The notes: generated by a model from the letters alone, not told the origin. Positions 9,751-31,179 are shown, counted from the first letter of the stretch. The stretch is 32,301 nucleotides of DNA from an uncultured Clostridia bacterium (GCA_934771675.1 CAKVMF010000002.1:1-32301); one strand, 5' to 3'. Made by a program: numbers and translations.

Positions 9751-9779
9751 ACCAACATCTCCTAATAAAATATGCCAAA

Positions 9780-9808
9780 AGTGTAACACAAAACCCTGCC
9801 GTTGTCAA
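9780..9808 (-). promoter_or_regulatory. SigA-type promoter for lysK
   Basis: On the minus strand: TTGACA, 17-nt spacer, TACACT. About 22 nt of leader contain the RBS. Confidence 0.5.
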
Positions 9809-9900: not shown

Positions 9901-12900
9901 TTAACCCATTTCTCTTCCAGCTGTTGAAGCCATTGAAGTTTTAACCAATGATGAAACACTATCTGGGTTGAAAGCTTTGATATAATCTATCATGCTACCA
10001 CTTGTTCCAGTGTCTAGTGTTTTAAGTGCTTTATCACTGATTTTATTTCCATGGTCAGCAACAAGCTTAACCTTGATTGCTTCATATTCAGCATCAATAG
10101 CGTTTGCAGCTTTTTTCCATTCAACAATGATTGCATCCCATGCTTGTTTGTAAGAAACATTTACAGGATCATTGATAAACGCTTCAATTGGTTGAGAACC
10201 CCTAACTGTGTTGATTTGGTTAAGCAACAAGTTCATATGGCTCTTAAAACCAAGCATTGAAGTTCTTTTAAGTTCAAGAATGTATAAAAGCTTATCATTC
10301 AAACTTTCAACGCTAACATCTCTATCACGAATTTGCTTAAGTTGATTTTTAATTTGCCCAAATACAGATGTATCGCCAACCGCTGAAGCCGTGTCATAAG
10401 AGTTTTTCACATCGGTTGACTTGATTGACAATTTTGAAGCATCATACGAATCAGTTATGCCTGAAATCATTTTAATTCTATTTGCAGGAACTTCCATTGA
10501 GTCATTAAGACTTCTATTGAAGAACAATGCACACATAACTTTCAATTCATCTTCGGTATGATCTTCAAAACCTTTACAAACACTACTTCTAAGTTCAAAT
10601 AATTTTGGACCGTCTTTGTAGTATTTTTGCAATCTTTGGATTCTCTTATCAAGAGTTTTTCCATAAGCAGTTCCCATCTTAATGTAGTTTCTAAAACCAC
10701 CTTTTGGATATTCCTTGTCAAGATAGCCAATAACTTTTTGATCTTCTGGTTTCAAAGTCATCAATGTTTTTTCATATTTCGCAAATTGAATATTTGTTGC
10801 TTTTTCCAAAACATTTCTTTCAAAGTTGTCAATAAGTTTTTCTTTTTGCATTTGAGTAAGATATCTGCTTTGAGTTATCTTTTTGAGTGTTGAAACAAGT
10901 TCAGGAAGAGTCTTGTTTACAGCATCTTCTTCCATTGCTTTAACTTCAAGCCTGATTTTTTCATAAATTTCTTCACCCAAACGAACTGTTAAGTATTCCT
11001 TAAGAGCTGGATCATTTTTAACAGTGTCAATTGTGTCTTTGTAAAGTTTATCAATTTTATTTTCAGAAGCTTTTGGATCTGAAGTTATATCAACTTTTTT
11101 GATTTCTTCAATAAGTTTTGCAATGTTTGGAACTTTTTCACTTCTAACAGCTTTTAAAGCACCTGGCTTAACTTCCAAATCACGTTTCCTTTCAAAACTA
11201 TCAAATTGTTTGAACAATTTATCTTTTAATTCTTTTTTTGCTTGTTTATCTTCAGGAGTATCTTCAGGCAAATTGGCTATTTTCGTTCTTATTTCGGTGA
11301 TTGTGTTAACATTATCATGTTTTTCAGAATCAACATCATTAACTGAAAGATAAAGAGCATCTTCTTCTCTTACATTTGCAATATCTCTTGCAATTGCACG
11401 AATATCTGCTTCTTTTGTTGCGTCTGCTGGAAGTGTGATTCCATTCAAAATTTCAGATTCTGTCATTTTGCAAGCAGCAATTTTCTTTTCTTTCATTGCT
11501 TCAAGATAATTTCTTGCATCATCATTTGCAATTGTTGTTAAATCAAGTGTTTCAAGAGTAGTTCTTGAAGTTGAAGTGCTAATTGTGTTTGCAGCAGCAA
11601 TAACATCAGTTGTTGCATCTGCTCCCATTTCTTTAACACTATTGATAATATCATTTTTGTCAGTTGAAAGTTGTCCAACAACACCAACCTTAAGACCTTC
11701 TTTTAAAGTGTCATTTTCAGAATCTTGTTCAAATTCAATAAAGCTAACATAACTTTTAACTTTTGAACTCAAATCACCAAATTTTGTTGAAGTTGTCAAT
11801 CTCTTTTTAACAACACTAGATTCAAGCATTCTCTTTACTGTTTCCATATTTTCAGCAGAATATGGTTTTTCAAAAACTTCATTATTGAGTGCATCAATAA
11901 GTTGAAGATCTAGAGCATCATATGCTTGCTTGTATTTGATGTTGGCTTCAATTGAATCTTTGAACTTTGTGCCATATTCGTCAAGACGTTCATATGATTG
12001 AATAAGTTCTGTTACAGATCTATCTCTCTTAACTTTGTTTCCGCTTCCATCAACTGTTTCAATTTGTGTGAAGTTCTTTATATCTTTAAGTTCGTCTTCA
12101 ACTTCAAAGTATTCTTTATCTGTTTTAAATACTGTTTTAACTTCATCAGCATTAAGTTTTGAAAGAATAGTTTGGAAACCTTTTTTGTCGTTAATGTCAG
12201 AGCAGAACAAATATTCTTTTCTTGATTTTTCAAAGAATGCTTCACCTTTCAAACCCATTCTGTCACGTTTGCAAGCCATGTTGAAATACTTTTTAAGCCA
12301 TGCATCCTTTCCAACAAATTCACCTTTTTCAATATAAGTTGTAACTGCTTGAGCCATAAATTGCTCATTTCTAATATCTTTTAAACCCTTAACAGTTTTC
12401 CCATTTTTGCCGTCCATAACAGTTCTGTATTGTCCACGGCTCTTTTCAAAATCTTTAATATCGGCAGCTGCCTTCATATAGTCTTTCCAACAATAACCAG
12501 ATTCAAGGGCATTTGCAAGTGTTCTTTTTACACCAAAATATGAAGTTCCTGCTCCGGCAATGACAAGTCCTAGTCTTGCAACTGTTGTTGCAACACCAAG
12601 AGCAGCTGCTGTTGCTGGAAAACATACAGCCAAACCAGCCCCAGCAAGTGCAACTGATCCAATTGTTCTAACTATTCTCCAAGCAAACTTTCCAAACAAA
12701 CTACGTTTTGTTGCTTTTTTGCCGGCAAGTTCATCTTCAGCGGCTTCATATTGTCTATAAAGTGCACCTGAACCGTTTTTGCTTGGGTCAGCATCTTTAA
12801 AGTAAAATGGCTTACCTGAAGATACCTTCTTTCTGGCTTTGTAATCTTCCAACGTTGCATCACGTTTTTGATTCAAAATCAAAGCCATATCGTTGTTTGA

Positions 12901-13260
12901 AGGTCTACCACTAAATTTGCTATAATCATCAGCAACATCAACACCAACTTTTTCAGCCGCATGCGAAATTGCTTGACTGATAATTTTTCTATACTTTGCG
13001 TTGTTTGGATAACCTATGAAATAACTCTTATCAACAGAGTCTTCAATGCCCAAACTCTTCAAAAAGGTCTGATTTGGATCAGCCATTTGTTCAGAAATAT
13101 ACTTATCAATATCCTTATCAGTTCCTGTTCCAGTATAACCATATGTCCTTGGATTCTTTTTGATCTCGTTGAACATATAAACATATGTTGCAAGCACTTG
13201 ATATTCAGATAATTTGAGCTCGTCATCCTTACGCTCTCTATACTTAAATGGTTCTGGCAT
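9901..13260 (-). CDS. hypothetical 1119-aa protein with a Gly/Ala-rich membrane hairpin and a long helical C-terminal region
   Basis: Long uninterrupted ORF with RBS AGAGGTG, own promoter and terminator. Two adjacent hydrophobic Gly/Ala-rich segments (WRIVRTIGSVALAGAGLAVCFPATAAALGVATTVARLGLVIAGAGTSYFGV, about nt 12526-12678). The rest is Lys/Glu-rich, with no enzymatic motif I recognise. Confidence 0.7.
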   Translation of the reverse strand: MPEPFKYRERKDDELKLSEYQVLATYVYMFNEIKKNPRTYGYTGTGTDKDIDKYISEQMADPNQTFLKSLGIEDSVDKSYFIGYPNNAKYRKIISQAISHAAEKVGVDVADDYSKFSGRPSNNDMALILNQKRDATLEDYKARKKVSSGKPFYFKDADPSKNGSGALYRQYEAAEDELAGKKATKRSLFGKFAWRIVRTIGSVALAGAGLAVCFPATAAALGVATTVARLGLVIAGAGTSYFGVKRTLANALESGYCWKDYMKAAADIKDFEKSRGQYRTVMDGKNGKTVKGLKDIRNEQFMAQAVTTYIEKGEFVGKDAWLKKYFNMACKRDRMGLKGEAFFEKSRKEYLFCSDINDKKGFQTILSKLNADEVKTVFKTDKEYFEVEDELKDIKNFTQIETVDGSGNKVKRDRSVTELIQSYERLDEYGTKFKDSIEANIKYKQAYDALDLQLIDALNNEVFEKPYSAENMETVKRMLESSVVKKRLTTSTKFGDLSSKVKSYVSFIEFEQDSENDTLKEGLKVGVVGQLSTDKNDIINSVKEMGADATTDVIAAANTISTSTSRTTLETLDLTTIANDDARNYLEAMKEKKIAACKMTESEILNGITLPADATKEADIRAIARDIANVREEDALYLSVNDVDSEKHDNVNTITEIRTKIANLPEDTPEDKQAKKELKDKLFKQFDSFERKRDLEVKPGALKAVRSEKVPNIAKLIEEIKKVDITSDPKASENKIDKLYKDTIDTVKNDPALKEYLTVRLGEEIYEKIRLEVKAMEEDAVNKTLPELVSTLKKITQSRYLTQMQKEKLIDNFERNVLEKATNIQFAKYEKTLMTLKPEDQKVIGYLDKEYPKGGFRNYIKMGTAYGKTLDKRIQRLQKYYKDGPKLFELRSSVCKGFEDHTEDELKVMCALFFNRSLNDSMEVPANRIKMISGITDSYDASKLSIKSTDVKNSYDTASAVGDTSVFGQIKNQLKQIRDRDVSVESLNDKLLYILELKRTSMLGFKSHMNLLLNQINTVRGSQPIEAFINDPVNVSYKQAWDAIIVEWKKAANAIDAEYEAIKVKLVADHGNKISDKALKTLDTGTSGSMIDYIKAFNPDSVSSLVKTSMASTAGREMG

Positions 13261-13359: not shown

Positions 13360-14625
13360 TTATTTTTGCAATTGATCAATATCTTTTTGGTCTTGTTCAT
13401 CTTGCTTAAAACCTAAGATATCTTTAATATAATCGATTGAATTCAAAAGGTCTTTCTCATCCTTTTCTTTTTCAACCTTTTCTTTTTCTTCAATTGTTTC
13501 TTTCTTTTCTTGTTTTTCTTCTTCAGATTGCTTTACGTTTTCAAATTTTTCATTGAAAGCTTCTTCATCAAACTGTCCTTCAAGATTGATTGCTTCACGA
13601 TTTACAGTTCTGAGATTCTCTTCTTGCTCTTTTGTAAGCTTAACTGGAGCAAATTCTTCATCACTCAAAGCTTTTTCATCAGCTGTTGATTTTGCTGCAA
13701 GTTTTGTTTCAGCATATTCATCTTCAAGTTCACAAAGTTTTTGATAATACTTGTTTGTAGCCTTTAAAATTTCAATGTTGTGCTTAACATCAAAACTTTT
13801 ATTTTTGTCTGAAAGTTCTTCTTGAACAATTTTCAAATCTCTTTTAAGTTTGTCAAACTTTGCTTTAAGTGAAATATCTTCAAACAATGTTTCATCACTA
13901 CGTTTAAAAATCATTTCAGTTGCTTTTTTTAAATGGAAATATTTTTCTTTTGCTCGCATATAAAAATGGTCAAAAATTGCAAACAAAATCAATCCCAAAA
14001 CAATTAGGATTATTCCGCCAATATATTTTCTTTCCCAAACTGGAATAAGTCCACCGATTGCATCAACAACAACATTTTCATAAAGCATTCCAACAACACC
14101 AAATGAAAACACAACAACTGCAAACATCATCAAAATAAAACTAACAATTTTGCTTGTTTTTAATGCTGAAAGTTTATTGTCAGCATTTGTCGCTTCCCTT
14201 TCTCTTGAAAGAGTAAGTTTGTGATATTTTAAATATTCATTTTCAGCTCTGTCAGTGGCTTCATCAACAAAGTTGTAATAATGCTTTTGGGCATTTGCAA
14301 CATCATCAATAGTTGCAAGTCTTTTTTCAGTTGAATCAAGTGAACCAATTTCAAGAGCATAGTTGTAAAGCACCAAAAGTTCGGTTTCAGTTGGAACTGT
14401 TTTAAATCCAAAATCACAATTTTGCATAATTGTTACAAATTGAACCCAATTCAAAAACTCTTTTTTTTCATCAATAAGTTCAAGATGAACTTCGCTCAAA
14501 AATTCATTTGGATTATTCACAATTGTGGTGTAAGCCTGAACAAATTTAGCAACTTCAATATAAAATTTGCTATCTTTAACCATTGATGCGGCAACTTTTT
14601 CACCATTCACATTATTAACTAACAT
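13360..14625 (-). CDS. hypothetical membrane protein (~421 aa) with two TM helices and an acidic coiled-coil tail
   Basis: Start trimmed to Met14 (RBS GGGGGAC 3 nt upstream). TM segments IVSFILMMFAVVVFSFGVVGMLY and IGGIILIVLGLILFAIFDHFY. The C-terminus is Glu/Lys-rich (EEKQEKKETIEEKEKVEKEKDEKD). Confidence 0.65.
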   Translation of the reverse strand: MLVNNVNGEKVAASMVKDSKFYIEVAKFVQAYTTIVNNPNEFLSEVHLELIDEKKEFLNWVQFVTIMQNCDFGFKTVPTETELLVLYNYALEIGSLDSTEKRLATIDDVANAQKHYYNFVDEATDRAENEYLKYHKLTLSREREATNADNKLSALKTSKIVSFILMMFAVVVFSFGVVGMLYENVVVDAIGGLIPVWERKYIGGIILIVLGLILFAIFDHFYMRAKEKYFHLKKATEMIFKRSDETLFEDISLKAKFDKLKRDLKIVQEELSDKNKSFDVKHNIEILKATNKYYQKLCELEDEYAETKLAAKSTADEKALSDEEFAPVKLTKEQEENLRTVNREAINLEGQFDEEAFNEKFENVKQSEEEKQEKKETIEEKEKVEKEKDEKDLLNSIDYIKDILGFKQDEQDQKDIDQLQK

Positions 14626-14883
14626 AAAGTCCCCCAAATCTATCTCAAAATAATAATAACACACTGAAAAAAAATTCGCAAATAATCTACCAAAAAATAT
14701 AAAATAATAAAAATATAAATAAGGTGATTTTTTATAAAGCCAAAATTACCACATAAAAGGAATAGACCCTCACGTCGTGCCACGCACTCCTCAGGGCGAC
14801 ATGCTAATTGATATTGGCTTACTTAAAACCAAAGTGCTCGCTAAATATAAAACAAACTTATCCCCCCCATTCAAAGAAATATG

Positions 14884-19877: not shown

Positions 19878-19951
19878 TGGAGCAAATGATGAGAATCGAA
19901 CTCACGACCTAAGCTTGGGAAGCTTATGTTTTGCCATTAAACTACATTTGC
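19878..19951 (-). tRNA. tRNA-Gly (anticodon CCC), CCA encoded
   Basis: Hand-folded cloverleaf: acceptor GCAAATG/CATTTGC, D arm GTTT-AATGGCA-AAAC, anticodon arm TAAGC-TTCCCAA-GCTTA, T arm GTGAG-TTCGATT-CTCAT, discriminator U, CCA. 74 nt. Confidence 0.9.
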
Positions 19952-20079: not shown

Positions 20080-20643
20080 TCAATCACTAGAAGTAGTTTT
20101 AATAATTGTCACTTCAAAATTTGTTGGTTTTAATGATTTTAAATCGTCATATAACTTTTTAGATATAACAGAAGACTCTCCATCTTTAACCGCAAAATAG
20201 TTGTATTTTGCATCAATATTATCTTTTAAAACCGACCTAAATGATGATACAGCAACACCATAATCAATCATATCAGAAAGATTTCTATCAAGAACATCAA
20301 TCTCAAATTTTGGTCTTAAAATGAAATATGGTTTCAAAATACCATCATCTTTCGCAAAACATTCAAAAAATTGTATCTCATTTGAATATTTTTCATTTAA
20401 CATCTTGAAAATTTTTTCAGAAACAATAATTTCAGCCCAATCGTTTAGCAAAAAATCTGAAATCGGTTCATTATTTTTGTAACTTTTATCTCGTTCAAAA
20501 ATAATTGGAGTTTTTGAAAAACCGTCAAAAGGTTTGCCAAAATTTCTAAACTCTCTTATTTCAGCATATGGCTCATAATCATTTAAAAAATTACCATATT
20601 TTTTTGCACAATTTGTTAACGACCTTATTTCATAATAATTCAT
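20080..20643 (-). CDS. putative orphan immunity protein (187 aa), possibly DUF1629/Imm11-like
   Basis: Start trimmed to MNYYEIRS (RBS AAGGAA). It is the last gene of the immunity array. The segment ISDFLLNDWAEIIVSEKIFKMLNE resembles my recollection of DUF1629-type immunity proteins; this assignment is not verified. Confidence 0.5.
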   Translation of the reverse strand: MNYYEIRSLTNCAKKYGNFLNDYEPYAEIREFRNFGKPFDGFSKTPIIFERDKSYKNNEPISDFLLNDWAEIIVSEKIFKMLNEKYSNEIQFFECFAKDDGILKPYFILRPKFEIDVLDRNLSDMIDYGVAVSSFRSVLKDNIDAKYNYFAVKDGESSVISKKLYDDLKSLKPTNFEVTIIKTTSSD

Positions 20644-20653
20644 AAATATTTCC

Positions 20654-21097
20654 TTACAACTTTGAATATCTTGCATCAAGTTCTTCCAAATCTTTAATAT
20701 CTTCCCACTTGATTTTTATTGTGGCAAGCAAGTCTTCAATTAATTTTTCTCCGTTAAAATCGCCTTTCTTTTTCGCGTCCACAATCTTTATTGCATCTAC
20801 AAGCATTTTTACATAAAGCAGCAATCTTCCGTTTTCATCTGCTTTTACAAATTTATCGTAGTCCATTATAAGCCTAATGTCTGCATCTTTAGATTTTGGT
20901 CTAACCAGCCTTCTTTCTTTCCAATCTTCATCTAAAAACTCATCTTCCATTATTGTCGGAATTATACTTATAAGTTCAAACTCCAAGCCATAATTGTTTT
21001 TACAAAGTTTGTTCAAAATAGGTTCTAGAAATGAATAAATTTTATTCGTTTTATTTCCAACACCTATTGATTCTTCTGATGAAATACAAATCTTCAT
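20654..21097 (-). CDS. putative immunity protein, paralog B of the 22644-23129 gene (147 aa)
   Basis: RBS AGGAGAAG. The C-terminal two-thirds is a near-copy of the other paralog, including 67 identical residues (DWKERRLVRPKSKDADIRLIMDYDKF...GEKLIEDLLA). Confidence 0.65.
   Translation of the reverse strand: MKICISSEESIGVGNKTNKIYSFLEPILNKLCKNNYGLEFELISIIPTIMEDEFLDEDWKERRLVRPKSKDADIRLIMDYDKFVKADENGRLLLYVKMLVDAIKIVDAKKKGDFNGEKLIEDLLATIKIKWEDIKDLEELDARYSKL
20727..20927. repeat. 201-bp tract 100% identical to 22756-22956
   Basis: Base-by-base comparison at a constant offset of 2029 nt. The first mismatches are at 20726/22755 and 20928/22957. Confidence 0.9.
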
Positions 21098-21105
21098 AAC
21101 TTCTC

Positions 21106-21837
21106 CTATTTTTCATTAAAATCCACTGCTGGGAAAACTGTTTTTATAAGACTATTTACTTTTGAGAGCCTTTTTTGATATGTTTCCATATCTGGATTTT
21201 TTCCAGCGGTAAAATCTTTTGTTGGCTTGAATATCTTTTCATCAATAACTCTTTCAATATCTCTATTGTTTCCACCAACAATTTTATCTAAAACAGTGTC
21301 AATAATAAGTGATTTTTGAACCTTGTATTCATAGTTTTTATTTGGAACTATTTCATATAATCCGTCGTAAAGTTTTGCAACAGTATCAAATAAACTGTCT
21401 TGCAATAAAAATGTTACTTTTCCACCATAAATCAAGTCTTGAGAATCATTTTCCATGATTTTCAAAATCATAGATTTAACGTCTTTGTAGCCATTTGAAA
21501 TTTCATCACGACTTTCAACAGCCAATTGTTCAACCAACTCATTTTTATAAATAAATTCAGGAACTGGTCTGCCATATTGCTTCAATAAATTAACCTTTTC
21601 TTGCACACTTTTTTCAAATTCTTCATTTAAAAATTTTACTTCTGCAAAAACAGGCTTTGAATATTCATCAAAAAATTCTTGTAATTGCTTATCATTTAAG
21701 CTATTGATTTTGTTTTGAAGCATTTCGCAAACATCATTAAAGTTATCTTGAAAGTTCGCAATAAATTCATCAAAATCTATCTTTCCCACAACAAAATCAT
21801 AAATCATTTTTTGATAATCTATTTTTCTATTTTTCAT
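21106..21837 (-). CDS. hypothetical 243-aa protein in the immunity array
   Basis: Clean ORF between a cassette terminator and the next gene; its stop overlaps the RBS of the downstream gene. No recognisable motif. Confidence 0.55.
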   Translation of the reverse strand: MKNRKIDYQKMIYDFVVGKIDFDEFIANFQDNFNDVCEMLQNKINSLNDKQLQEFFDEYSKPVFAEVKFLNEEFEKSVQEKVNLLKQYGRPVPEFIYKNELVEQLAVESRDEISNGYKDVKSMILKIMENDSQDLIYGGKVTFLLQDSLFDTVAKLYDGLYEIVPNKNYEYKVQKSLIIDTVLDKIVGGNNRDIERVIDEKIFKPTKDFTAGKNPDMETYQKRLSKVNSLIKTVFPAVDFNEK

Positions 21838-21843
21838 ATATTT

Positions 21844-21872
21844 ATTTTAACAAACTCAAAATTTTTTGTCCA
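21844..21872 (-). promoter_or_regulatory. candidate promoter for the 243-aa gene cassette
   Basis: On the minus strand: TGGACA, 17-nt spacer, TAAAAT. Only 6 nt separate it from the ATG and there is no RBS. Confidence 0.35.
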
Positions 21873-21875
21873 CAC

Positions 21876-21905
21876 AAAAATAGCAGGCAATGCCTGCTAT
21901 TTTTT
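21876..21905 (-). terminator. conserved palindromic terminator, copy 1 (after SUKH paralog B)
   Basis: AAAAATAGCAGGCAATGCCTGCTATTTTT; the T-run follows on the minus strand; it overlaps the stop at 21904. Confidence 0.7.
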
Positions 21906-22560
21906 AACCTTTTTGATTTGTTTTTGTTGAATCTTCTTCTGGAACTGTCCAAGTTATATCACCCCAAAACGCATTTGATATAGCTGGGTATTTTTTGCAC
22001 CATTTATCTTTATTTGGATGTTTTCTATACCCCTTTTCATCATATTCTGGAACGAGATATTTAAAGTAGTATTTCATAACATCTTCAATTGAATCAAACT
22101 CTTTTGAAGGAACTATTGTGCCATTTTTTGCCAAATAAATCTTTGGACGCATCAATTCAGATTGTTTGTAATACATTTCATACTCACCAACTCCACCAAA
22201 AAACACAATATCATCCAAAGTTTCCTTTGTTACCTTTTTGTCCTTAATTTCACCATGTTTGTTGATATCGTTTAAATAAAATTCCATTGGACTTGATTTT
22301 CCAACTCCAATACCATAAATATTTATTGATGAAAGAAATAATCTGCAACCATTGTAATTTTTATAAAATTCCTTAAGTTCAGGAAGCAATCTAATATTGT
22401 ATTGCTGCTCAAAATTATCATAATAGCTTATGTCAATTTTTTTGCATAAAGTATGAAGATATGTTTCATCTGAAATTTCTTTCATAACAACATAAATCTT
22501 TCCTTCTTCATTATCTTTTTCAAGCTTCCATTTTGTTTCAATCAATTCGTCTAAATACAT
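21904..22560 (-). CDS. SUKH-1 (SMI1/KNR4) family immunity protein, paralog B (218 aa)
   Basis: Motif LPELKEFYKNYNGCRLF is typical of SMI1/KNR4 (SUKH) proteins. It is roughly half identical by eye to the toxin-adjacent paralog. RBS AGGAAG. Confidence 0.75.
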   Translation of the reverse strand: MYLDELIETKWKLEKDNEEGKIYVVMKEISDETYLHTLCKKIDISYYDNFEQQYNIRLLPELKEFYKNYNGCRLFLSSINIYGIGVGKSSPMEFYLNDINKHGEIKDKKVTKETLDDIVFFGGVGEYEMYYKQSELMRPKIYLAKNGTIVPSKEFDSIEDVMKYYFKYLVPEYDEKGYRKHPNKDKWCKKYPAISNAFWGDITWTVPEEDSTKTNQKG

Positions 22561-22586
22561 TTTTTACTTCCTATTACTACATTTCC

Positions 22587-22614
22587 ATTTTAACAAAATT
22601 AAACTATTTATCAA
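22587..22614 (-). promoter_or_regulatory. candidate promoter for SUKH paralog B
   Basis: On the minus strand: TTGATA, 16-nt spacer, TAAAAT. Confidence 0.4.
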
Positions 22615-22616
22615 AC

Positions 22617-22645
22617 AAAAATAGCAGGCAATGCCTGCTATTTTT
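22617..22645 (-). terminator. conserved palindromic terminator, copy 2
   Basis: Same AATAGCAGGCAATGCCTGCTATT palindrome plus T-run; abuts the stop of the 161-aa gene. Confidence 0.7.
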
Positions 22646-23129
22646 ATCTCTGTTTTGCTAAATCATTATTTTCTTTTGCTGTTCTACTAAGTGGGTATCT
22701 TGGATCTAATTCATCCAAATCTTTTATTTCGTCCCACTTTATGTTTGTTGCAGCTAGCAAGTCTTCAATTAATTTTTCTCCGTTAAAATCGCCTTTCTTT
22801 TTCGCGTCCACAATCTTTATTGCATCTACAAGCATTTTTACATAAAGCAGCAATCTTCCGTTTTCATCTGCTTTTACAAATTTATCGTAGTCCATTATAA
22901 GCCTAATGTCTGCATCTTTAGATTTTGGTCTAACCAGCCTTCTTTCTTTCCAATCTGGACCCAAATATTTTTCTTCTTTTATTGTTGGAATAATGCTTAT
23001 ATCTTGAAATTCTTCACCATAGTTATTATTTTTTGTTAAATTATTGAATATCATTTTAAAATTATTCCACAAATACATAATTGAATTATCAATATCTCCA
23101 GAATATTCAAAAGACAATGTTATATCCAT
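22644..23129 (-). CDS. putative immunity protein, paralog A (161 aa)
   Basis: RBS AAAGGGGAA; own promoter and terminator; paralog of 20654-21097. Confidence 0.65.
   Translation of the reverse strand: MDITLSFEYSGDIDNSIMYLWNNFKMIFNNLTKNNNYGEEFQDISIIPTIKEEKYLGPDWKERRLVRPKSKDADIRLIMDYDKFVKADENGRLLLYVKMLVDAIKIVDAKKKGDFNGEKLIEDLLAATNIKWDEIKDLDELDPRYPLSRTAKENNDLAKQR
22756..22956. repeat. 201-bp tract 100% identical to 20727-20927
   Basis: See the partner copy. The flanks fall to an estimated 75-80% identity. Confidence 0.9.
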
Positions 23130-23167
23130 ATTTCCCCTTTATTTTATAAAACTAGATAAGCATTTTA

Positions 23168-23196
23168 ATTTTAACATTCAAAGAATCAAAAGTCAA
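23168..23196 (-). promoter_or_regulatory. candidate promoter for the 161-aa immunity gene
   Basis: On the minus strand: TTGACT, 17-nt spacer, TAAAAT. Confidence 0.45.
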
Positions 23197-23207
23197 TTTT
23201 GACAATA

Positions 23208-23236
23208 TAAAATAGCAGGCATTGCCTGCTATTTTT
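23208..23236 (-). terminator. conserved palindromic terminator, copy 3 (ends the toxin operon)
   Basis: AATAGCAGGCATTGCCTGCTATT plus T-run. It differs from copies 1 and 2 only at the central base. Confidence 0.7.
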
Positions 23237-23882
23237 AATCCTTTTGAATTGATTTTGACAAATCATCTTCTGGAACCGTCCAATCTATATCACCATTAAA
23301 TGAATTTTTTTCTAAAGGAAATTTTCTACACCATTTTTCATTTATTGGATGTTTTCTATAACCTTTTTCATCATATTCAAATGATAATGCTTTAATATAA
23401 AATGACAAAAGTTCTTTTATAGAATAAAATTCTTTATGAACTGTTAATTCACCATGATTTGAAAGGTATAATTTTGGTGATTTTATTTCACTTTGTTTAT
23501 AATAAATCAAATAATCTCCAACATTTCCAATATAAACAATATCTTTACCATCAAAGCCATTATTATTTAGTTTTGTATGAAGATTTATGTTATTTAAAAC
23601 CATACACATTGGTTCAGATTTTTCGACATCAAAACCATAAATATTTATCGATGAATGAAATAACCTACATCCATTAAAATTTTTGTAAAATTCTTTAAGC
23701 TCTGGCAATAATACGATGCCATTTTCTTGTTCATATTTGTTTGCATAGTTAATATCAATTTTTTTATATAGTCTATGTAAATATACATCATCGTCAATTT
23801 CAGGCATTGCACAAAACAACAATCCCTCTTCATTATTTTGGTCAACCTTCCATTTATTCTTTAACAATTCATCTAAATACAT
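23235..23882 (-). CDS. SUKH-1 (SMI1/KNR4) family immunity protein, presumed cognate of the upstream toxin (215 aa)
   Basis: LPELKEFYKNFNGCRLF motif. It starts 10 nt after the toxin stop, whose TAA is embedded in the RBS (TAAGGAG). Confidence 0.8.
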   Translation of the reverse strand: MYLDELLKNKWKVDQNNEEGLLFCAMPEIDDDVYLHRLYKKIDINYANKYEQENGIVLLPELKEFYKNFNGCRLFHSSINIYGFDVEKSEPMCMVLNNINLHTKLNNNGFDGKDIVYIGNVGDYLIYYKQSEIKSPKLYLSNHGELTVHKEFYSIKELLSFYIKALSFEYDEKGYRKHPINEKWCRKFPLEKNSFNGDIDWTVPEDDLSKSIQKD

Positions 23883-23892
23883 TTTTTTCTCC

Positions 23893-26085
23893 TTATAATC
23901 CCAATTTAGTCAATTTATCTACAACCCATGGCAATAATTCCTTTACCTTAGCCAAATCAGTAGCATTTTTCCATGAACCACCATGAACATATAAATGTTG
24001 TTGTCTTGTTAAAAATACAATATTATCAGGATTTCCAATCAAATCCAAATTTCCCATACTTCTGCTCACATCTTTTAAATGACAACCTTGGTAACCTTTT
24101 ACTTTACCATACTTTAAAATTTGTTGTCTTTCAGATGCCGTCCATGTGTATTTTGATTTTTTATTCAATACAGCTTTTTGTTCATTTTTCCAAGCATCTC
24201 TTACAGCTTTTTGTCTAGCATTTCTAATTTCACTTTTTGATGGATTTTTTGCAGCATTATTTGATGAATTTGTTCCTTTTTTTGCATTTGATTTGGTTGA
24301 TTTTGAACAAGCATTGTGAACTAAAACGTTATCATTTCCAACATAATATGTGTGGAATGATTCATCATTTTCGTCACCTACTGTAAAGTTGTAAACATCA
24401 ATTGGTTCATCAAGTTTTTGTCTGTGAACACCTAATATTTTAACACTTTCTCCATTTTCTGTCAATAATGTATCACCAGATGCAAGTTCATATGCAGGAA
24501 CCCAACCTCTGCTTTCAACATACCATGGATGAAGTGATGTTGATGTGATAGTTTTTCCAGTGCTAAGAGCAACTGAACAAATATCATCTGAAGTGCTTCT
24601 CATTATGTTTGTAACAGCAACAGCTGAAACCATTGCAGTTGCTTCGTCATAACTTAACACTTTTTCACCAACAGTAACGTCTTGAATATTTTTAAGACCA
24701 CTTTCAGTTAAAACCTTTGTATCTTCAACAAAGCACGCCTTAACAAGTCCGCTGCCAACCATAACAGCACTCATAATTGCAGACATCATGAATGATTTTG
24801 CAATATTTTCTGGTTCAAGAGTACTTTTTGCAGCATCTCTAAGTGCTTCACCAAAACTTTTTCCTTGAATAACTCCTGTTATTGTTGAAACAGTTGTTTG
24901 AATTGCAAGGTCTGTAATAACTGCAACAGCTGTCATTTTTGTTATTAATAACAATGATGCTCCGAAAGACGCTCCCCCACAAAGTGGTGCAAGTGCCGCT
25001 CCAATAAGCATTGCAGCAAGACCAATAGCAGCAAACAAACCAACCTTTAACCAGTTTGTTGTTTTTGTTTTGATTAAATCAGCTTTCTTTACCCCACCAT
25101 CAGCGGTAAATTCAAGTGTTGTGTCAGCACCGAATGTTTCGTTGAGCGAATCTAAATCATATCCAAAGAATGAGTCTTTGCTAGACAAATTTTGCCATTC
25201 ATTGATTAAATCATAATCAATAATTGTGATTGTTATTTCGCTAACATAGTAACCATTCTTTTCTTGTTCAGCATTGATTTCATCAATCTTTGCTTGAATG
25301 CTGTCATAATCAATATCAGAAAACATTGCTTTTACTTCAACTGAAGTGTAAGTAAAATCATTTTCATAAATGTATTTGCATTCATCATATGAGAATAATT
25401 GACCTAATTTAGTATCATAATTTTCAGTATTGTTATCTTGAATACTATATTTTACAGTTCTTTCATTAACCCATCTATATGCAACATATTTATCATAATA
25501 AACAAAGTGACCATCACTTCTTTCAATTGCATAGTTAGAGATAATGTATCTATATCCATCATCTTCACCATTGTTAAATGAAATCAAATTTTCTGTGTTT
25601 GAAATTACAGTATCATCTTTAACAACACCGATAAATCCACCATTCATATAAGTTTCATTAATTTCTTCATATTCGGTGTAAGTCAATCCAAAATAAATTG
25701 TATCATTGTCTAAATTCAATGCTTTTGATTCAAAAACTTCAAATCCTTGGTTATTTAATTCATAGCAAAGAGAATTATACAACAATGATAAAATTTGAAA
25801 TTCAATAAATTCTTCTTCTGTTAAATCATCTGGAGTTTCTCCATTTGAAGCACTACTGAGCACGCTGTCGTGCTTTTGTTGTTCATCAATAAGTGATGAA
25901 TCATAAACTTTTACTTTGTAATTGGTGTCAGGTGTTGCTGGCGTTGCAGCGACTGTTCTATTGTAATCGCAATTTTGTTTATCAATATCAGCCGAATATG
26001 GCTTAATCAAAACAATATTGAGCGCACAAACAACACTTAAAATAAATGACAAAACATATTTTGAAATATTTTTTAAAGTTTTCAT
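23893..26085 (-). CDS. secreted polymorphic toxin: signal peptide, unknown NTD, TM block, Hint domain, HNH/EndoVII-like C-terminal toxin (730 aa)
   Basis: N-terminal signal peptide (cleavage probably after YSA). Hint hallmarks: ACFVEDTKVL...LVHNAC. C-terminal H...N...H...HGG nuclease-like pattern. An immunity gene follows immediately. Confidence 0.8.
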   Translation of the reverse strand: MKTLKNISKYVLSFILSVVCALNIVLIKPYSADIDKQNCDYNRTVAATPATPDTNYKVKVYDSSLIDEQQKHDSVLSSASNGETPDDLTEEEFIEFQILSLLYNSLCYELNNQGFEVFESKALNLDNDTIYFGLTYTEYEEINETYMNGGFIGVVKDDTVISNTENLISFNNGEDDGYRYIISNYAIERSDGHFVYYDKYVAYRWVNERTVKYSIQDNNTENYDTKLGQLFSYDECKYIYENDFTYTSVEVKAMFSDIDYDSIQAKIDEINAEQEKNGYYVSEITITIIDYDLINEWQNLSSKDSFFGYDLDSLNETFGADTTLEFTADGGVKKADLIKTKTTNWLKVGLFAAIGLAAMLIGAALAPLCGGASFGASLLLITKMTAVAVITDLAIQTTVSTITGVIQGKSFGEALRDAAKSTLEPENIAKSFMMSAIMSAVMVGSGLVKACFVEDTKVLTESGLKNIQDVTVGEKVLSYDEATAMVSAVAVTNIMRSTSDDICSVALSTGKTITSTSLHPWYVESRGWVPAYELASGDTLLTENGESVKILGVHRQKLDEPIDVYNFTVGDENDESFHTYYVGNDNVLVHNACSKSTKSNAKKGTNSSNNAAKNPSKSEIRNARQKAVRDAWKNEQKAVLNKKSKYTWTASERQQILKYGKVKGYQGCHLKDVSRSMGNLDLIGNPDNIVFLTRQQHLYVHGGSWKNATDLAKVKELLPWVVDKLTKLGL
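23896..24306 (-). other. C-terminal toxin module (residues 594-730), HNH/Endonuclease VII-fold-like
   Basis: GYQGCHLKDV...GNPDNIVFLTRQQHLYVHGGSW resembles the [x]HH...N...L...H...HxGG pattern of the AHH/LHH/WHH/GHH nuclease toxin families, but with CHL instead of xHH. The Lys-rich linker is typical. Confidence 0.55.
24307..24735 (-). other. Hint (Hedgehog/intein-like) pre-toxin autoprocessing domain, residues 451-593
   Basis: Begins with Cys (A-CFVEDTKVLTESG), ends with VLVHN-AC. ~143 aa, with no homing-endonuclease insert. Confidence 0.75.
24736..25059 (-). other. Gly/Ala-rich hydrophobic block (residues 343-450), about 3-4 predicted TM helices
   Basis: WLKVGLFAAIGLAAMLIGAALAPLCGGASFGASLLLITKMTAVAVITDLAIQ...FMMSAIMSAVMVGSGLV. 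Confidence 0.6.
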
Positions 26086-26097
26086 TTTTGTTCCCCC

Positions 26098-28452
26098 TTA
26101 ACCATTAAATGTGTTTGCACTTGAAGAAACGCCTTTGCCACTGATTAATGCAGTAAGTTTTGCATTAACATCCATAACTTTTGCAAGAGCACTTGAAACA
26201 CTTGTTTCTTTTTCAGAAAGTGTGTTGACAACAAAGCTGAAAATATTTCCGCTTCTGTCAATCATTGAAACAAGATAGTTTGCTCCTGAAAGAGTTAAGT
26301 TTTTAACATCTTCATAATTTTTAAGTTCAAGAGTTTTTGTTGTTAAATTGAAAATAGCAACAACTCCCTCACTGTCAAGTTCGTTTGCAATAGCACTAAA
26401 CTTAACATTTGTTCCGTTGATGATTTGATAGTTTGAATTGTTAACATCAACAACTGTTCCATCAACATCAAGTGATACAACTGTTTCATTTGTGTTTTCA
26501 TAGCAAATTGTGTAAGTTACGCTTTCATTATAAGCATTTGTTTCTGTGATTTCATATCTTCCAGATTTGCTTAACATTTTTGAAAGTTTTGTGTTGTATG
26601 CAAGATTAATAATTTCGCCAGTTGCAACATTTTTTGCAACAATGGTCTTGCTTTCATAATCTCCAACTTTAACAAATTTAAAGTTGCCATCAATAATGTC
26701 ATTTTGAGCAAGCATCTTTCCAAGTTCAAGAGCTGTTGTCATGTAAACATCTCTGTCAAAATTGAGTTCTTCAACTTTGATTGTGCTTGAAAGCATCTCT
26801 TCATTAACATAAAAATCTGTTAATCCTTTGATGAAATATTGCTCTGTAACTTTTGTTTTAACAACTTCGTTCATTGCATTTGTGAGAGCGATGTCTGTTG
26901 TGTAAGTCACACCATTATAAACATATGCTCCCTTTGAACCTGAAACGTATTTCTTTTCAAGCTCAAAAGCAAATTGATAAGCCAAGTATTTGCTGTCTTT
27001 GTCAAAGCAAATATGTGCAATTTTGCCACTTGGCATTGTGTAAGCGACTTCAAGATGTTTTGTTTCATAGTCGCTCATAACAAGGTTTCCTGTGATGTTT
27101 GTAAGGTTGATGCTTGGTGCACTTGATTCATTTGAAACAATGAATGCAAAATCGTAATGATAAGTTGTGCCTGCAAGTTTTTCATCACCATTAACAAGTG
27201 AAACCATATAAACGCCTTCTTGATTTAATGTGAAGGTTTGTGCTGACTCTGAAGGGTCAACTGTTGTAACAAAACCTGTTGAATTGTTTTTAATTGTTCC
27301 CCTGAGTGCTGGAACATATGAACCTGCACCATTCAAACGAAGTTTAACACCAACTTGATATGTTGGGAGTGCTTGGCTCAAATCTGCAATTCTTTGACCT
27401 TCAAAAATTGAATTTCCAAAGTATGTTGCAAATCCTTTGTCATACTCTCCGCCTTTGAAAACATAAACTGAACGTTTTGCTTCATCGCCGAATAAACTTT
27501 TAACAGAAACTTCATACTTTCCGTCATCAGTAAATTCCATACCATCGCAAATGTTTTCAATCTTGTTTCCATCCTTTTTCACTTCAACAGTGTAACTTTT
27601 GTTTCCAAGATAATTCATTTGGAACCCTTGAGTTGTAACAGATCCATCTTGCAAATTATCTCCTTTTTTGATCAAATCAATTTGAGATTCTTCGTTGCTG
27701 TAAGATGAATAATCTTTTTCAACCAAATCCAAAAGTTGGATGTCACAAGTATTTCTTCCTATAAAGATTTGGTAAGTTTCCAAACAGTTCTTATATTCTG
27801 TTTTCCTTTCCTTTCTTTTAAATATCCACCAACCACGTGTTTCCCACCACTCTCTATAAATTTCATATGCCACTGAAATATTATAGTAACAGCCTTGGTT
27901 GATATCTTCACCATTGACGGAAGTGTAGTCAAATGATGAATTACTATTAAACACGTTACCGCTTCTAATTAAGGTTGTCCAATTACTTTCTGAAAGATTT
28001 TTCTTTTGAACAATAATTGCACCTTTGCCAATGCTAGATCCGTTGAGTGAAATGCCATTTACAGAAGTAGCTGAATCGCTGCTAAGATTCCAAACGCTAC
28101 TATTGATACCAGACTTGTTGTAGTTAAGTTTGTAAGTAAATGAAATTTGTTCACTTGGATCGCTTGAATAGGCTTTTGCACCACCATAGGTTCCCTGGTC
28201 TCTAACCCCAGCTACACTAAGTGAGCCTATTGAACTTGCCCCAAAGGACATGCTGTTCGCCTGCGCTTTTGATGGATAGTATCCAACGTTGTCCGCCATT
28301 TGATATGTTCCACTTGATGGAACAGTGTAGGTTTGTGCACTTGCCTTGTCTGCTTTGTTTCCGCCAAAGTTAACAATACTAAAAATTGAAACAAGAAGCA
28401 CAAAAACCAATGAAAATGGCACTATTCTTTTAAATATACTATTCCTTTTCAT
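26098..28452 (-). CDS. secreted 784-aa protein of unknown function (beta-rich, Asn/Ser/Thr-rich)
   Basis: Signal peptide MKRNSIFKRIVPFSLVFVLLVSIFSIVNFGGNKADKASA|Q. The stop lies 12 nt before the toxin ATG, with a GGGGGA RBS in between. No LPXTG and no motif I recognise. Confidence 0.75.
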   Translation of the reverse strand: MKRNSIFKRIVPFSLVFVLLVSIFSIVNFGGNKADKASAQTYTVPSSGTYQMADNVGYYPSKAQANSMSFGASSIGSLSVAGVRDQGTYGGAKAYSSDPSEQISFTYKLNYNKSGINSSVWNLSSDSATSVNGISLNGSSIGKGAIIVQKKNLSESNWTTLIRSGNVFNSNSSFDYTSVNGEDINQGCYYNISVAYEIYREWWETRGWWIFKRKERKTEYKNCLETYQIFIGRNTCDIQLLDLVEKDYSSYSNEESQIDLIKKGDNLQDGSVTTQGFQMNYLGNKSYTVEVKKDGNKIENICDGMEFTDDGKYEVSVKSLFGDEAKRSVYVFKGGEYDKGFATYFGNSIFEGQRIADLSQALPTYQVGVKLRLNGAGSYVPALRGTIKNNSTGFVTTVDPSESAQTFTLNQEGVYMVSLVNGDEKLAGTTYHYDFAFIVSNESSAPSINLTNITGNLVMSDYETKHLEVAYTMPSGKIAHICFDKDSKYLAYQFAFELEKKYVSGSKGAYVYNGVTYTTDIALTNAMNEVVKTKVTEQYFIKGLTDFYVNEEMLSSTIKVEELNFDRDVYMTTALELGKMLAQNDIIDGNFKFVKVGDYESKTIVAKNVATGEIINLAYNTKLSKMLSKSGRYEITETNAYNESVTYTICYENTNETVVSLDVDGTVVDVNNSNYQIINGTNVKFSAIANELDSEGVVAIFNLTTKTLELKNYEDVKNLTLSGANYLVSMIDRSGNIFSFVVNTLSEKETSVSSALAKVMDVNAKLTALISGKGVSSSANTFNG

Positions 28453-28526
28453 TATTTTTTCTCCTTTTCTGAAATTACCTTTTAATAAATTAACCTCCTT
28501 TTTTTATTTATATTCAATGTCAAGCA

Positions 28527-30776
28527 CTATGCATTTTTGAATTTTATTTTATCAATGCTTGAAACATTAAATATCAAAATAATTTGTGAGTCATCATCAC
28601 GCACTTTGCCATAAACCATGCCGTATGAGTAGTAACAATTCTGGCAAAACTCACTTCTAGTCATATCTATCTCAATTTGAAGCAATGATGAGCAATCTTT
28701 AAATGGCTGATAGCCAAAATCACTAACATTCGCTCCAATGTAAACATTCTGTAAATTTTCACAGCCCGAAAAAGCATAATAGCCGATTTCTTCAACCGAA
28801 TCAGGCAACGAAATTTGAATTAAACTTTTGCAACCCTGAAACGCATTCATATCAATAACCAAAATGCTGTTTGAAAGAGTTACATTTGCGAGCTTTTTGC
28901 AATTTGAAAACATACTTGAACTTAAAACTTCAATATTTGAATTTATCACAGCTGTTTCCAAGTTTAAGCAATTTTCAAAAGCACCTTCACCAATACTGGC
29001 GCAACTTGCTGGTGTTTCAATTTCTTTTAAAGCTTGACAATCATAAAATGCCGATTTTCCAATTTTCTCTAAATTGACACCAAGTGTAATTGTTTCAAGA
29101 GCCAAGCAGCCAGCAAAACACCTGTCACCTATTATTTTAAGACCTTCCAAACCAGAAACATTTGTAAGCACCTTACACTCGAAAAATGCACATGTTCCAA
29201 TTTTTTCAACAACCGTTGGAAGAGAAATCTGCTTAATCACTTCATTAAACGCAAATGCATAACTTCCTATGCTTAAAACTTCTATACCTTCAATTTCAGC
29301 TGGAATAGAAACTGATTCATTTGTGTTTTTGCACTTGATAACTCTTGCCTTGCCATCAATTATTCTGAAAACAAAGTCATCATTTTCAAGCGTGCGATAT
29401 TCTTCACCATCAAACATAAGCGAACTGTCATCAACATAATTGAATACTTTTGAAACTTCTTCAATAGTTCCAAAAACCTTTCCTTGTGATGTTGTGCTTT
29501 GACTTAAAAACTCATCTTTTTTGCACGCAAAATTAACTTCAACAATGTTGAAGCATTTTTCAAAACAACTGTCGTAAAGCATTATTGCTTTTTGTTTTAA
29601 AGCAATGTTTTTCAAGCTTTTACAGTTTGCAAACGCATATTGATAAATTTTTGATGTGTTTTTTAAATCAACAATTTGCAAATTTTCAAGCCCGTTAAAA
29701 GCATATTCAAAAATTGATGTTACATTTTCACCAATGCATATTGTTTCAATTTTTGTACATCCGTCAAATGCATGTGCTGGAATTTCAGATAGGTTTTCAC
29801 CAAGTGAAATTGTTTTCAAACTTCTGCAGTTTGAAAATGCACTCTCACCTATCTCACTCGCACTTGCAAGATTTATATTTTCAAGAGCATAACAATTTAA
29901 AAATGCCTTGCTTTTAATTTTTGTTACATTCCCAGCAAAACTTGCAGCTGTTAAATTGCTGCAATTTGCAAAAGTCTCTTCTTCAATTGCAGTTATATTT
30001 GCTGGCAAAGATATTTCCTTTAAACCTGTCAAATAAAAAGCTCTTGCTCCAACACTTTTTATAGTGTTTGGAAGTTTAATCTCTCCTAGGTTTAAACAAC
30101 TCTCAAATGTTGCTCGTTTAATTTCTTCAATTCCACTTGGAATGTTTATTGAATTTAATCTTTTGCAACCAAAAAAACTTTTTTCACCAATTGAAGTTAT
30201 CGTGTTTGGAAGAACAATCTTTTCAATAGTTCCATTGTTTTCAAACAAATTATCTTTAATTTCAGTTACACCTTCAAGAACTTCAACGGTTATTGCTGTG
30301 TCTAAAATATGCGAAGAATCAACCATTGATTTGTTTTCCAAAACCGAACCAATTTTAACATTTTTTATTGCATCGCATTTTCTAAAAGAATTTTTCCCAA
30401 GAGATGTTATTGAACTTGGCAAAACAACACTTTGAAGATTTGAGCAATTATAAAAAGCCTGTTCCCCAATAACTTCATAACCTTCAGGAACAATGATATT
30501 TTTTATATCGAAATTATTTTTAAAACAATATGTGTCAATACCTTTGATTGCAATACCGTCAATAGTTTTTGGAAATTCAACAGTCACATCTGTTAATATC
30601 GCACCATTGATAACAGCCCTTTCACCATCCATTTTGTAAGAAAAAGTGGTTATTAAAGGCAGGTCCTTGTTGCCATCATCTGAACCAGAACCAGTATTGT
30701 CGTTTGATTTACATCCTATGAAAACAAGCACACAAATTAAAGCAATAATTGAAAAAATAATCTTTTTTAGTTTCAT
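28527..30776 (-). CDS. BspA-type leucine-rich-repeat (LRR_5-like) lipoprotein, 749 aa
   Basis: Lipoprotein signal MKLKKIIFSIIALICVLVFIG|C. There are more than 20 degenerate ~23-aa repeats of the form I.IP..VTSIGE.AF..C..L..I.L. RBS AAAGGAGAG. Confidence 0.8.
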   Translation of the reverse strand: MKLKKIIFSIIALICVLVFIGCKSNDNTGSGSDDGNKDLPLITTFSYKMDGERAVINGAILTDVTVEFPKTIDGIAIKGIDTYCFKNNFDIKNIIVPEGYEVIGEQAFYNCSNLQSVVLPSSITSLGKNSFRKCDAIKNVKIGSVLENKSMVDSSHILDTAITVEVLEGVTEIKDNLFENNGTIEKIVLPNTITSIGEKSFFGCKRLNSINIPSGIEEIKRATFESCLNLGEIKLPNTIKSVGARAFYLTGLKEISLPANITAIEEETFANCSNLTAASFAGNVTKIKSKAFLNCYALENINLASASEIGESAFSNCRSLKTISLGENLSEIPAHAFDGCTKIETICIGENVTSIFEYAFNGLENLQIVDLKNTSKIYQYAFANCKSLKNIALKQKAIMLYDSCFEKCFNIVEVNFACKKDEFLSQSTTSQGKVFGTIEEVSKVFNYVDDSSLMFDGEEYRTLENDDFVFRIIDGKARVIKCKNTNESVSIPAEIEGIEVLSIGSYAFAFNEVIKQISLPTVVEKIGTCAFFECKVLTNVSGLEGLKIIGDRCFAGCLALETITLGVNLEKIGKSAFYDCQALKEIETPASCASIGEGAFENCLNLETAVINSNIEVLSSSMFSNCKKLANVTLSNSILVIDMNAFQGCKSLIQISLPDSVEEIGYYAFSGCENLQNVYIGANVSDFGYQPFKDCSSLLQIEIDMTRSEFCQNCYYSYGMVYGKVRDDDSQIILIFNVSSIDKIKFKNA

Positions 30777-30825: not shown

Positions 30826-30854
30826 AGTTTAACCCATTAAAAAAATTTTGTCAA
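30826..30854 (-). promoter_or_regulatory. candidate promoter of the LRR / 784-aa / toxin / SUKH operon
   Basis: On the minus strand: TTGACA, 17-nt spacer, TAAACT. ~45-nt leader. Confidence 0.45.

Positions 30855-31102: not shown

Positions 31103-31179
<77 letters not shown>

Follow-up and report, generated by a model that had tools for sequence, protein, structure and literature searches.

CdiA forms a surface stalk in which a VENN junction motif precedes the C-terminal polymorphic toxin. A second, internal variable region of CdiA is the receptor-binding domain, by which receptor classes are defined (PMC8510554). In Neisseria, MafB consists of a Sec signal peptide, a lineage-specific constant N-terminus and a variable C-terminal toxin with an immunity gene downstream, while the gene directly upstream encodes MafA, a non-polymorphic lipoprotein proposed to be the surface holder of the toxin (Zhang et al. 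2012, PMC3482391 section 37; Jamet et al. 2015, PMC4287609). The umbrella (Umb) system of Streptomyces is a multi-protein secreted polymorphic toxin of Gram-positive bacteria, in which accessory proteins adjacent to the toxin supply target binding (PMC11062931). How Gram-positive bacteria without a type VII secretion system (T7SS) deliver Sec-exported polymorphic toxins is largely unknown, with few experimental examples. The subject of this analysis is a locus of three consecutive minus-strand open reading frames (ORFs) encoding a leucine-rich repeat (LRR) lipoprotein, a 784-aa protein (F784) and a polymorphic toxin, located on a 32,301-nucleotide stretch of DNA, termed the window, from an uncultured Clostridia bacterium (GCA_934771675.1 CAKVMF010000002.1:1-32301).

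On balance, this locus is judged likely to encode a Sec-exported, cell-surface polymorphic toxin that is split into separate polypeptides and is displayed and delivered on contact. As a type of system, the polymorphic toxin is known; what is undescribed is its trafficking and display apparatus, which is widespread in anaerobic Clostridia. The features concerned are as follows.

28527..30776, minus strand: LRR lipoprotein of 749 aa, with a lipobox (VFIGC) followed by BspA-type LRR_5 repeats in two blocks (Pfam LRR_5, 415.6 bits)
26098..28452, minus strand: F784 protein, 784 aa, Sec signal peptide and multi-domain beta-sandwich ectodomain (modelled), no C-terminal anchor in the clade of the window
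23893..26085, minus strand: polymorphic toxin, whole gene, 730 aa
25060..25989, minus strand: toxNTD, the N-terminal domain of the toxin (residues 33-342), by which the toxin family is defined (its profile matches the gene after F784 in every locus)
25381..25863, minus strand: second hypervariable cassette, within toxNTD, residues ~75-235 (allele comparison, DNA of the window against that of locus L010)
24730..25059, minus strand: glycine-rich hydrophobic region spanning residues 343-452, in which three segments are hydrophobic (hydropathy, column identity)
24307..24735, minus strand: PT-HINT autoprocessing domain, residues 451-593 (Pfam E 1.2e-22; C451, H590 and N591 invariant)
23896..24306, minus strand: variable C-terminal toxin, Tox-GHH, an HNH/EndoVII nuclease (Pfam E 1.3e-14)
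23235..23882, minus strand: cognate SUKH-like immunity gene (SMI1_KNR4, 24.3 bits)

By analogy, the locus appears closest in logic to MafA/MafB and CdiA. With MafA/MafB it shares an upstream lipoprotein gene, a signal peptide, a constant N-terminus, a variable C-terminus and a downstream immunity gene. However, no DUF1020/MAFB-N match or MafA-family lipoprotein was identified here with Pfam, making it an analogue only. Further differences are that the host of the window is Gram-positive, that an extra partner of ~800-1300 aa (F784) is obligatory, that the toxin of the window carries a conserved hydrophobic region and a PT-HINT domain, and that the lipoprotein is LRR-based and found in only some lineages. 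The likeness to CdiA lies in a putative surface stalk, in a C-terminal polymorphic toxin placed after a junction motif (LVHNAC here, VENN in CdiA) and in a second internal variable region, although a receptor role for the toxNTD cassette is suggested here only by analogy. No TPS domain, FHA repeats or CdiB were found in Pfam and NCBIfam scans of the three proteins and their neighbours, and the locus differs from CdiA in its predicted use of Sec only, with two or three polypeptides anchored in the cytoplasmic membrane.

The umbrella system resembles the locus in being a multi-protein Gram-positive polymorphic toxin with accessory proteins encoded beside the toxin. It is reportedly a soluble particle of ALF-repeat UmbC, UmbB and lectin-bearing UmbA; Pfam identified no ALF repeats and no UmbA (lectin/trypsin-like) or UmbB domains at the locus of the window, whose toxin differs in having predicted membrane-spanning segments. 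The toxin was also found not to be of the T7SS LXG/WXG class, as it carries a Sec signal sequence, lacks an LXG match and has no Ess genes in the 32 kb of the window, nor of the Rhs/WapA class, with no RHS match in Pfam and an F784 model made of beta-sandwich domains. PT-TG, ABP and bacterial teneurins were considered as matching systems and rejected, the papers on these concerning other systems. The original prediction for this locus, made by a model from the DNA sequence alone, had stated that no described polymorphic-toxin system of this composition was known to it. This stands in so far as no description of F784, toxNTD or the LRR-F784-toxin gene combination was found in the literature searched, but MafA/MafB and the umbrella particles are conceptual precedents.

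The association of F784 with the toxin was investigated by comparing loci from close relatives, distant relatives of ~1260 aa and a third clade, with ORFs scanned using hidden Markov models (HMMs) built from the proteins of the window. The metagenome scan was seeded with the clade alignment A4, the very diverse alignment A3 being too divergent as a seed, and a scan of species-representative genomes returned a single locus, from an uncultured Clostridia metagenome-assembled genome. A toxNTD gene was found after F784 in all 30 non-redundant loci with downstream DNA (HMM E-values 1e-19 to 1e-143), these being the window with L001, L003, L005, L009 and L010, nineteen loci of the distant clade and five of the third clade. 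The two genes were directly adjacent in 29 of the 30; the exception, L025, is otherwise like L027, but a 2.9-kb insertion (2495-5371) carrying three ORFs on the opposite strand separates its F784 gene from its toxin gene. The partner proteins of F784 share a common architecture in which a signal peptide or lipobox leads into toxNTD and then a hydrophobic region, some also have PT-HINT, and the chain ends in a variable nuclease-type C-terminus (GHH, AHH, WHH-like or unclassified); a small immunity-like gene comes after the toxin gene.

Nine of the 149 best representatives were found to carry F784 and toxNTD, usually with PT-HINT, on a single chain of 1860-2340 aa (P0111 of 2009 aa, P0120, P0141, P0146, P0152, P0158, P0159, P0162 of 2337 aa, and P0177). 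The other eight proteins longer than 1800 aa displayed the same hydrophobicity pattern as these fused chains. Two transmembrane (TM) helices are retained between the F784 and toxNTD parts, as would be expected from a C-terminal anchor of F784 joined to the signal sequence of the toxin, and the fused chains look as if made by read-through of two adjacent genes. As the fusions keep these two helices at the joint, the F784 and toxNTD ectodomains are placed on the same face of the same membrane. The fusions speak strongly for a joint function of F784 and the toxin, and the two proteins probably bind each other. A three-component module had been predicted originally; the three genes do form a coherent syntenic module, but its core is the two genes for F784 and the toxNTD toxin, given their linkage in 30 of 30 loci and their fusions, with the LRR gene found in only seven loci.

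In the window, F784 was found to possess a signal peptide (cleavage between ASA and Q) and a composition in which N, S, T and Y make up 32.9% of residues, with no LPxTG motif and no match in Pfam and NCBIfam scans, in agreement with its earlier description; it also has no C-terminal TM segment. Its designation as an orphan, however, had to be abandoned. A word-indexed search gave 16 relatives, and the profile derived from these, when run on 1.84 billion cluster representatives, identified 590 cluster representatives (50% identity) at E <= 1e-3, and 234 at E <= 1e-30. F784 is a large family of gut and rumen Clostridia/Lachnospiraceae, hitherto undescribed and unannotated. Its members fall into three size classes, the commonest of ~1250 aa and the others of ~780-950 aa and ~1900-2300 aa, and a C-terminal membrane anchor was present in 76 of the 104 complete unfused representatives.

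The AlphaFold2 model of F784 (mean pLDDT 82.4) consists of beta-sandwich domains strung together, with a single alpha/beta domain among them at residues ~460-600. Foldseek comparison of this model to PDB and BFVD gave generic Ig/FN3 arrays only (SpyCEP, alpha-2-macroglobulin, GhpA and phage FN3 proteins), with TM-scores of 0.2 or lower that do not permit functional inference, while a sequence-profile search of PDB sequences gave no match. The modelled fold is suggestive of an array of Ig/FN3-like beta-sandwich domains, as in surface stalks. Nothing in these results suggests the chaperone or pore that F784 had been proposed to be. It matches the N-terminal constant region of the single-chain relatives, and its linkage and fusions to toxNTD identify it as the extracellular partner that stays constant in a polymorphic toxin split into separate chains. 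Many of the F784/toxin modules (L007, L030-L036) were observed to lie on integrative/conjugative elements (integrases, MobL, relaxase, NikA-like), adjoined by defence-like genes (NB-ARC/kinase, SLFN-like helicase, WYL).

The toxin of the window begins with a signal peptide. Since all three products of the locus carry signal sequences, the Sec dependence originally proposed fits. The core of toxNTD was modelled with AlphaFold2 as an alpha+beta fold with pLDDT above 90 and coincides with the variable cassette; Foldseek gave no fold match in PDB (best E 0.1), and neither toxNTD nor the hydrophobic region had a Pfam match, even with the threshold relaxed to E 10. The hydrophobic region, a feature absent from the original prediction, contains segments at residues 343-367, 371-396 and 432-454, with invariant residues P367, G370 and G371 at the turn between the first two. 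Column identity is 57-83% over residues 348-447, where the highest windows of the whole toxin (0.81, 0.83) are found. A region as hydrophobic as this should halt passage through SecYEG, and the toxin is accordingly expected to be embedded in the membrane of the producer. The PT-HINT domain and nuclease may then lie either outside, with a hairpin and an interfacial helix, or inside, with three spans, and it is here that the mechanism is least certain. The PT-HINT domain itself (PF07591, 81.1 bits) has a Hint fold with Cys at its N-terminal end and His-Asn at its C-terminal end, C451, H590 and N591 being invariant in 18 sequences, and its cleavage is predicted.

Eighteen toxNTD proteins were found to align up to LVHNAC (residue 593) and then to diverge into GHH, AHH and unclassified C-termini; alleles share 96-100% identity up to this motif and 14-16% beyond it. 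Locus L010 belongs to the same species as the window (shared flanking genes, 93% DNA identity), and in it the GHH domain has been displaced by a different C-terminal domain with Imm44, while the SUKH gene survives as an orphan with 99% identity. The assignment of SUKH to the first immunity gene had to be qualified, as the first downstream SUKH-like protein scores just under the Pfam cut-off (25.4 bits), but it is backed by a paralogue at 21904-22560 that passes this cut-off and by relatives L005, L030, L031 and L033, in each of which the GHH toxin is followed by an SMI1_KNR4 protein. In L003 and L010, where the C-terminal domain is unclassified, Imm44 comes next. Further downstream in the window lies an orphan immunity array (20080..23129, minus strand; Pfam) of Imm44, SUKH, an unknown protein of 243 aa, Imm44 and an unknown protein of 199 aa, and tblastn found no orphan toxin C-terminal fragments. 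The variable C-termini, the co-changing immunity gene and the orphan immunity array are the features of a polymorphic toxin system, in the sense of Zhang/Aravind 2012, that sequence can reveal. Strains exchange the C-terminal toxin together with its immunity gene, and to exchange the toxNTD cassette as well.

This second cassette, an unexpected feature, was apparent from allele pairs in which it shares 35-46% amino acid identity between flanks of 96-100% (P0017 against P0018 and P0019; P0021 against P0022), with 71% identity in the cassette of a third pair (P0026 against P0027). At the DNA level, identity between the window and L010 falls to 57-70% at 25828-25379, with flanks of 95-99%. The LRR and F784 genes are uniformly 89-100% identical between the two loci, mostly 95-99%. 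Since its variation is independent of LRR and F784, the cassette most probably interacts with a factor external to the complex, for which a target receptor, or selection by phage or antibody, may be put forward as candidates.

For the LRR protein, the BspA-type repeats originally described were borne out, LRR_5 matching over five stretches, and the lipobox follows a basic and hydrophobic leader, so that lipidation is predicted. The same LRR_5 repeat is found in BspA-type and HupY/LrrG proteins, and NCBIfam gave a partial match to HupY/LrrG (E 1e-45), but at 156 bits the protein is far under the equivalog cut-off of 1250. Orthologues with 36-39% identity, all with lipoboxes (VVGC in L001), directly precede F784 in L001, L003, L005, L009 and L010. 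Together with the window, these six loci lie in four genomic contexts (CRISPR-Cas9; RecD2/ComFC; LysR/radical-SAM; PAP2/tRNA-Arg), and the block begins with the LRR gene in all four. The co-occurrence that the original prediction had put forward as a check was therefore observed, the three genes being syntenic while the toxin C-terminus and immunity gene vary. No description of a BspA-type LRR protein linked to a polymorphic toxin module was found in the literature searched.

The F784 proteins of the window's clade have no C-terminal anchor. In the distant clade, by contrast, each of the 18 F784 proteins whose ends are intact possesses a TM anchor with a charged tail, and none has an LRR gene. 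The sole anchor-less member of the distant clade, L021, encodes directly upstream (982-4089) a protein with LRR_5, Big_2 and a type I dockerin, which suggests a cellulosome-style surface attachment of the toxin module. Overall, an LRR gene lies upstream in seven of 11 anchor-less loci, representing two lineages, and in none of the 18 anchored loci; four anchor-less loci are without it. A strict rule that the LRR protein replaces a missing anchor was weakened by the loci of the third clade that have neither; owing to these, the LRR protein is not needed simply because the anchor is missing. The LRR gene is better described as a putative lineage-specific accessory that brings its own attachment device (lipid or dockerin). 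It may act as a tether or adaptor or as an added adhesin, with the distribution fitting the former at least as well as the target binding originally envisaged. A role as an immunity protein was ruled out, the gene being upstream and its product exported and non-variable between strains. The protein likewise does not belong to the Imm-LRR immunity class of Zhang 2012 (cytoplasmic, encoded downstream and co-varying), as it is encoded upstream, predicted to be exported and lipidated, and 89-99% identical even though the toxin domains differ.

In the mechanism favoured here, Sec would export all three products, and the toxin would stay in the membrane of the producer by means of its conserved hydrophobic hairpin. 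The F784 ectodomain would associate with toxNTD at the membrane surface and project outward as a stalk, with the lipid-anchored LRR protein either holding the anchor-less F784 on the surface or adding an adhesive surface. Upon contact with a neighbour, the variable toxNTD cassette or the distal modules of F784 would recognise a surface receptor, and insertion of the glycine-rich hydrophobic region would help membrane passage. PT-HINT (Cys451, His590-Asn591) would then cut off the GHH nuclease, and the freed nuclease would degrade the DNA of the target unless the SUKH immunity protein is present, as in sibling cells. A bolder proposal, which is tentative and may well prove incorrect, is that F784 and toxNTD, with LRR in some lineages, constitute an unrecognised Sec-dependent, membrane-embedded, contact-dependent delivery apparatus of Gram-positive Clostridia. 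This would be a counterpart of CdiA with a recognition cassette (~75-235) and a killing cassette (the C-terminal domain), in which the glycine-rich domain carries the nuclease released by PT-HINT across the target membrane.

As a defined module, F784/toxNTD offers an invariant two-gene core, natural fusions that fix its relative topology, lineage-specific surface adaptors (lipid-anchored or dockerin-bearing LRR proteins) and a second exchangeable cassette that may set the target range. With F784, toxNTD and the hydrophobic region before PT-HINT, it makes three new domain families available to annotation, and it is a concrete system for the study of strain-level competition in the anaerobic gut microbiota.

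Several points weigh against delivery on contact by a surface-displayed complex. Contact dependence is itself an inference only, and the variation of the toxNTD cassette could be antigenic or phage-driven diversification and not receptor specificity. The synteny of the LRR gene is drawn from only six fairly related genomes and L021, and third-clade loci L030, L031, L033 and L036 have an anchor-less F784 and no LRR gene. It is conceivable, though unlikely, that the LRR lipoprotein is an ordinary BspA-type adhesin standing beside a two-gene toxin module without a functional part in it. Surface proteins with LRR_5 abound in Clostridia, 23 of 30 loci lack the gene (four anchor-less ones included), it is the least conserved of the three (36-39%, against 43-53% for F784 and 50-59% for the toxin), and the 74-nt gap before F784 contains a weak promoter-like site. 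Against such a bystander, the gene stands directly before F784 in six of six loci of the window's clade across four contexts, with no terminator between the two genes, recurs independently in L021 and never accompanies an anchored F784 (0 of 18).

A further point against the delivery model is that, should all three hydrophobic segments span the membrane, PT-HINT and the nuclease would face the cytoplasm of the producer, which the model does not explain. The corresponding alternative, with the N-terminus out and the C-terminus in, is a self-acting device triggered by a signal, or one operating through vesicles or membrane exchange, and it is considered very improbable. An odd number of predicted hydrophobic segments in the toxin of the window, the cytoplasmic location of immunity proteins and the position of several loci on mobile elements beside defence-like genes (NB-ARC/kinase, SLFN-like helicase) would agree with it. 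However, the third segment is weak (1.71) and abuts the catalytic Cys, the first two are joined by an invariant tight turn (P367, G370, G371) of the kind found in re-entrant hairpins, the fused relatives have at least four hydrophobic segments, and C-terminal/immunity swaps with orphan immunity arrays are hallmarks of inter-strain antagonism. It is also improbable, if less so, that the toxin is diffusible in the manner of a bacteriocin, its C-terminal part being set free in the medium by PT-HINT or another protease, with a role for F784 and LRR in processing or release. Gram-positive Sec-exported diffusible polymorphic toxins with co-secreted helpers do exist, namely ABP (PMC13460014) and the umbrella particles (PMC11062931), and the PT-HINT catalytic residues are intact. 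Nonetheless, the freed piece would be a nuclease of ~137 aa without a recognisable entry domain, the conserved hydrophobic segment before PT-HINT should keep the protein in the membrane, and most relatives of F784 are membrane-anchored (76 of 104 complete representatives). The split, surface-displayed toxin delivered on contact is preferred.

With regard to gene layout and transcription, further features of the region were identified as follows.

28453..28526, minus strand: 74-nt gap with a ribosome-binding site and without a hairpin (z = 0.72)
30826..30854, minus strand: sigma-70-like promoter candidate upstream of the LRR gene (TTGACA-17-TAAACT, 10/12)
23209..23235, no strand assigned: palindromic terminator-like hairpin behind the first immunity gene, first of three copies
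L001 15213-17720, L003 16667-19171, L005 15391-17874 and L009 15102-17585: ABC-ATPase/FtsX-permease genes

The gaps of 74 nt between LRR and F784 and 12 nt between F784 and the toxin, on one strand, were confirmed to the nucleotide, and each of the three genes is preceded at 7-9 nt by a purine-rich Shine-Dalgarno sequence, in accordance with the ribosome-binding sites predicted. As had also been claimed, no terminator lies between the genes: a scan of the region found no terminator-like site within either gap, and the 74-nt gap folds no better than shuffled sequence (minimum free energy -4.5 kcal/mol). The predicted promoter is present as a match and is 97% conserved in the same-species locus L010, but promoter-like sites occur in this AT-rich region at chance frequency (62 observed, 58.7 +/- 6.3 expected), and for this reason the candidate is not evidence by itself. 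The terminator predicted after the SUKH gene proved to be a real hairpin, in a region where terminator-like sites are enriched (16 against 4.2 +/- 2.3 expected).

Near-identical copies of this palindromic hairpin, AAAATAGCAGGCAWTGCCTGCTATTTT, close three successive immunity cassettes (21877-21904, 22618-22645 and 23209-23235), and a 300-nt direct repeat with 91% identity (20667-20966 and 22696-22995) marks the duplicated Imm44 genes. Besides acting as terminators, the hairpin copies and the repeat may be substrates for recombination. The region's closest sigma-70-like match (24437-24465, minus strand; TTGACA-17-TAAAAT, 11/12, extended -10 TG) falls within the toxin gene, ~130 nt upstream of where the C-terminal toxin domain is joined on, and could be a promoter of the immunity genes' own. 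The whole block is situated between tRNA-Gly(ccc) and tRNA-Arg(cct) (tRNAs at 19878-19951 and 31103-31179), the G+C content of the immunity array (with the SUKH gene, 20080-23882) being 27.5% against ~33% in the flanks, and no integrase was identified inside this tRNA-bounded toxin/immunity island.

In four of the six loci that make up the window's clade, the toxin and immunity genes are followed by a fused ABC-ATPase/FtsX-permease gene of ~830 aa. It diverges between loci in parallel with the module, and its product may be a membrane-extraction or export helper. It was rejected as an obligatory component for the window, being absent from both the window and L010. Elsewhere in the window, two large ORFs upstream of secA (9901-13260 and 13360-14664, minus strand; 1119 and 434 aa) gave no Pfam match at E <= 0.001, and the lysyl-tRNA synthetase at 8176-9789 (minus strand) was identified as class I (PF01921, E 2.2e-109), which is the rarer type among bacteria.

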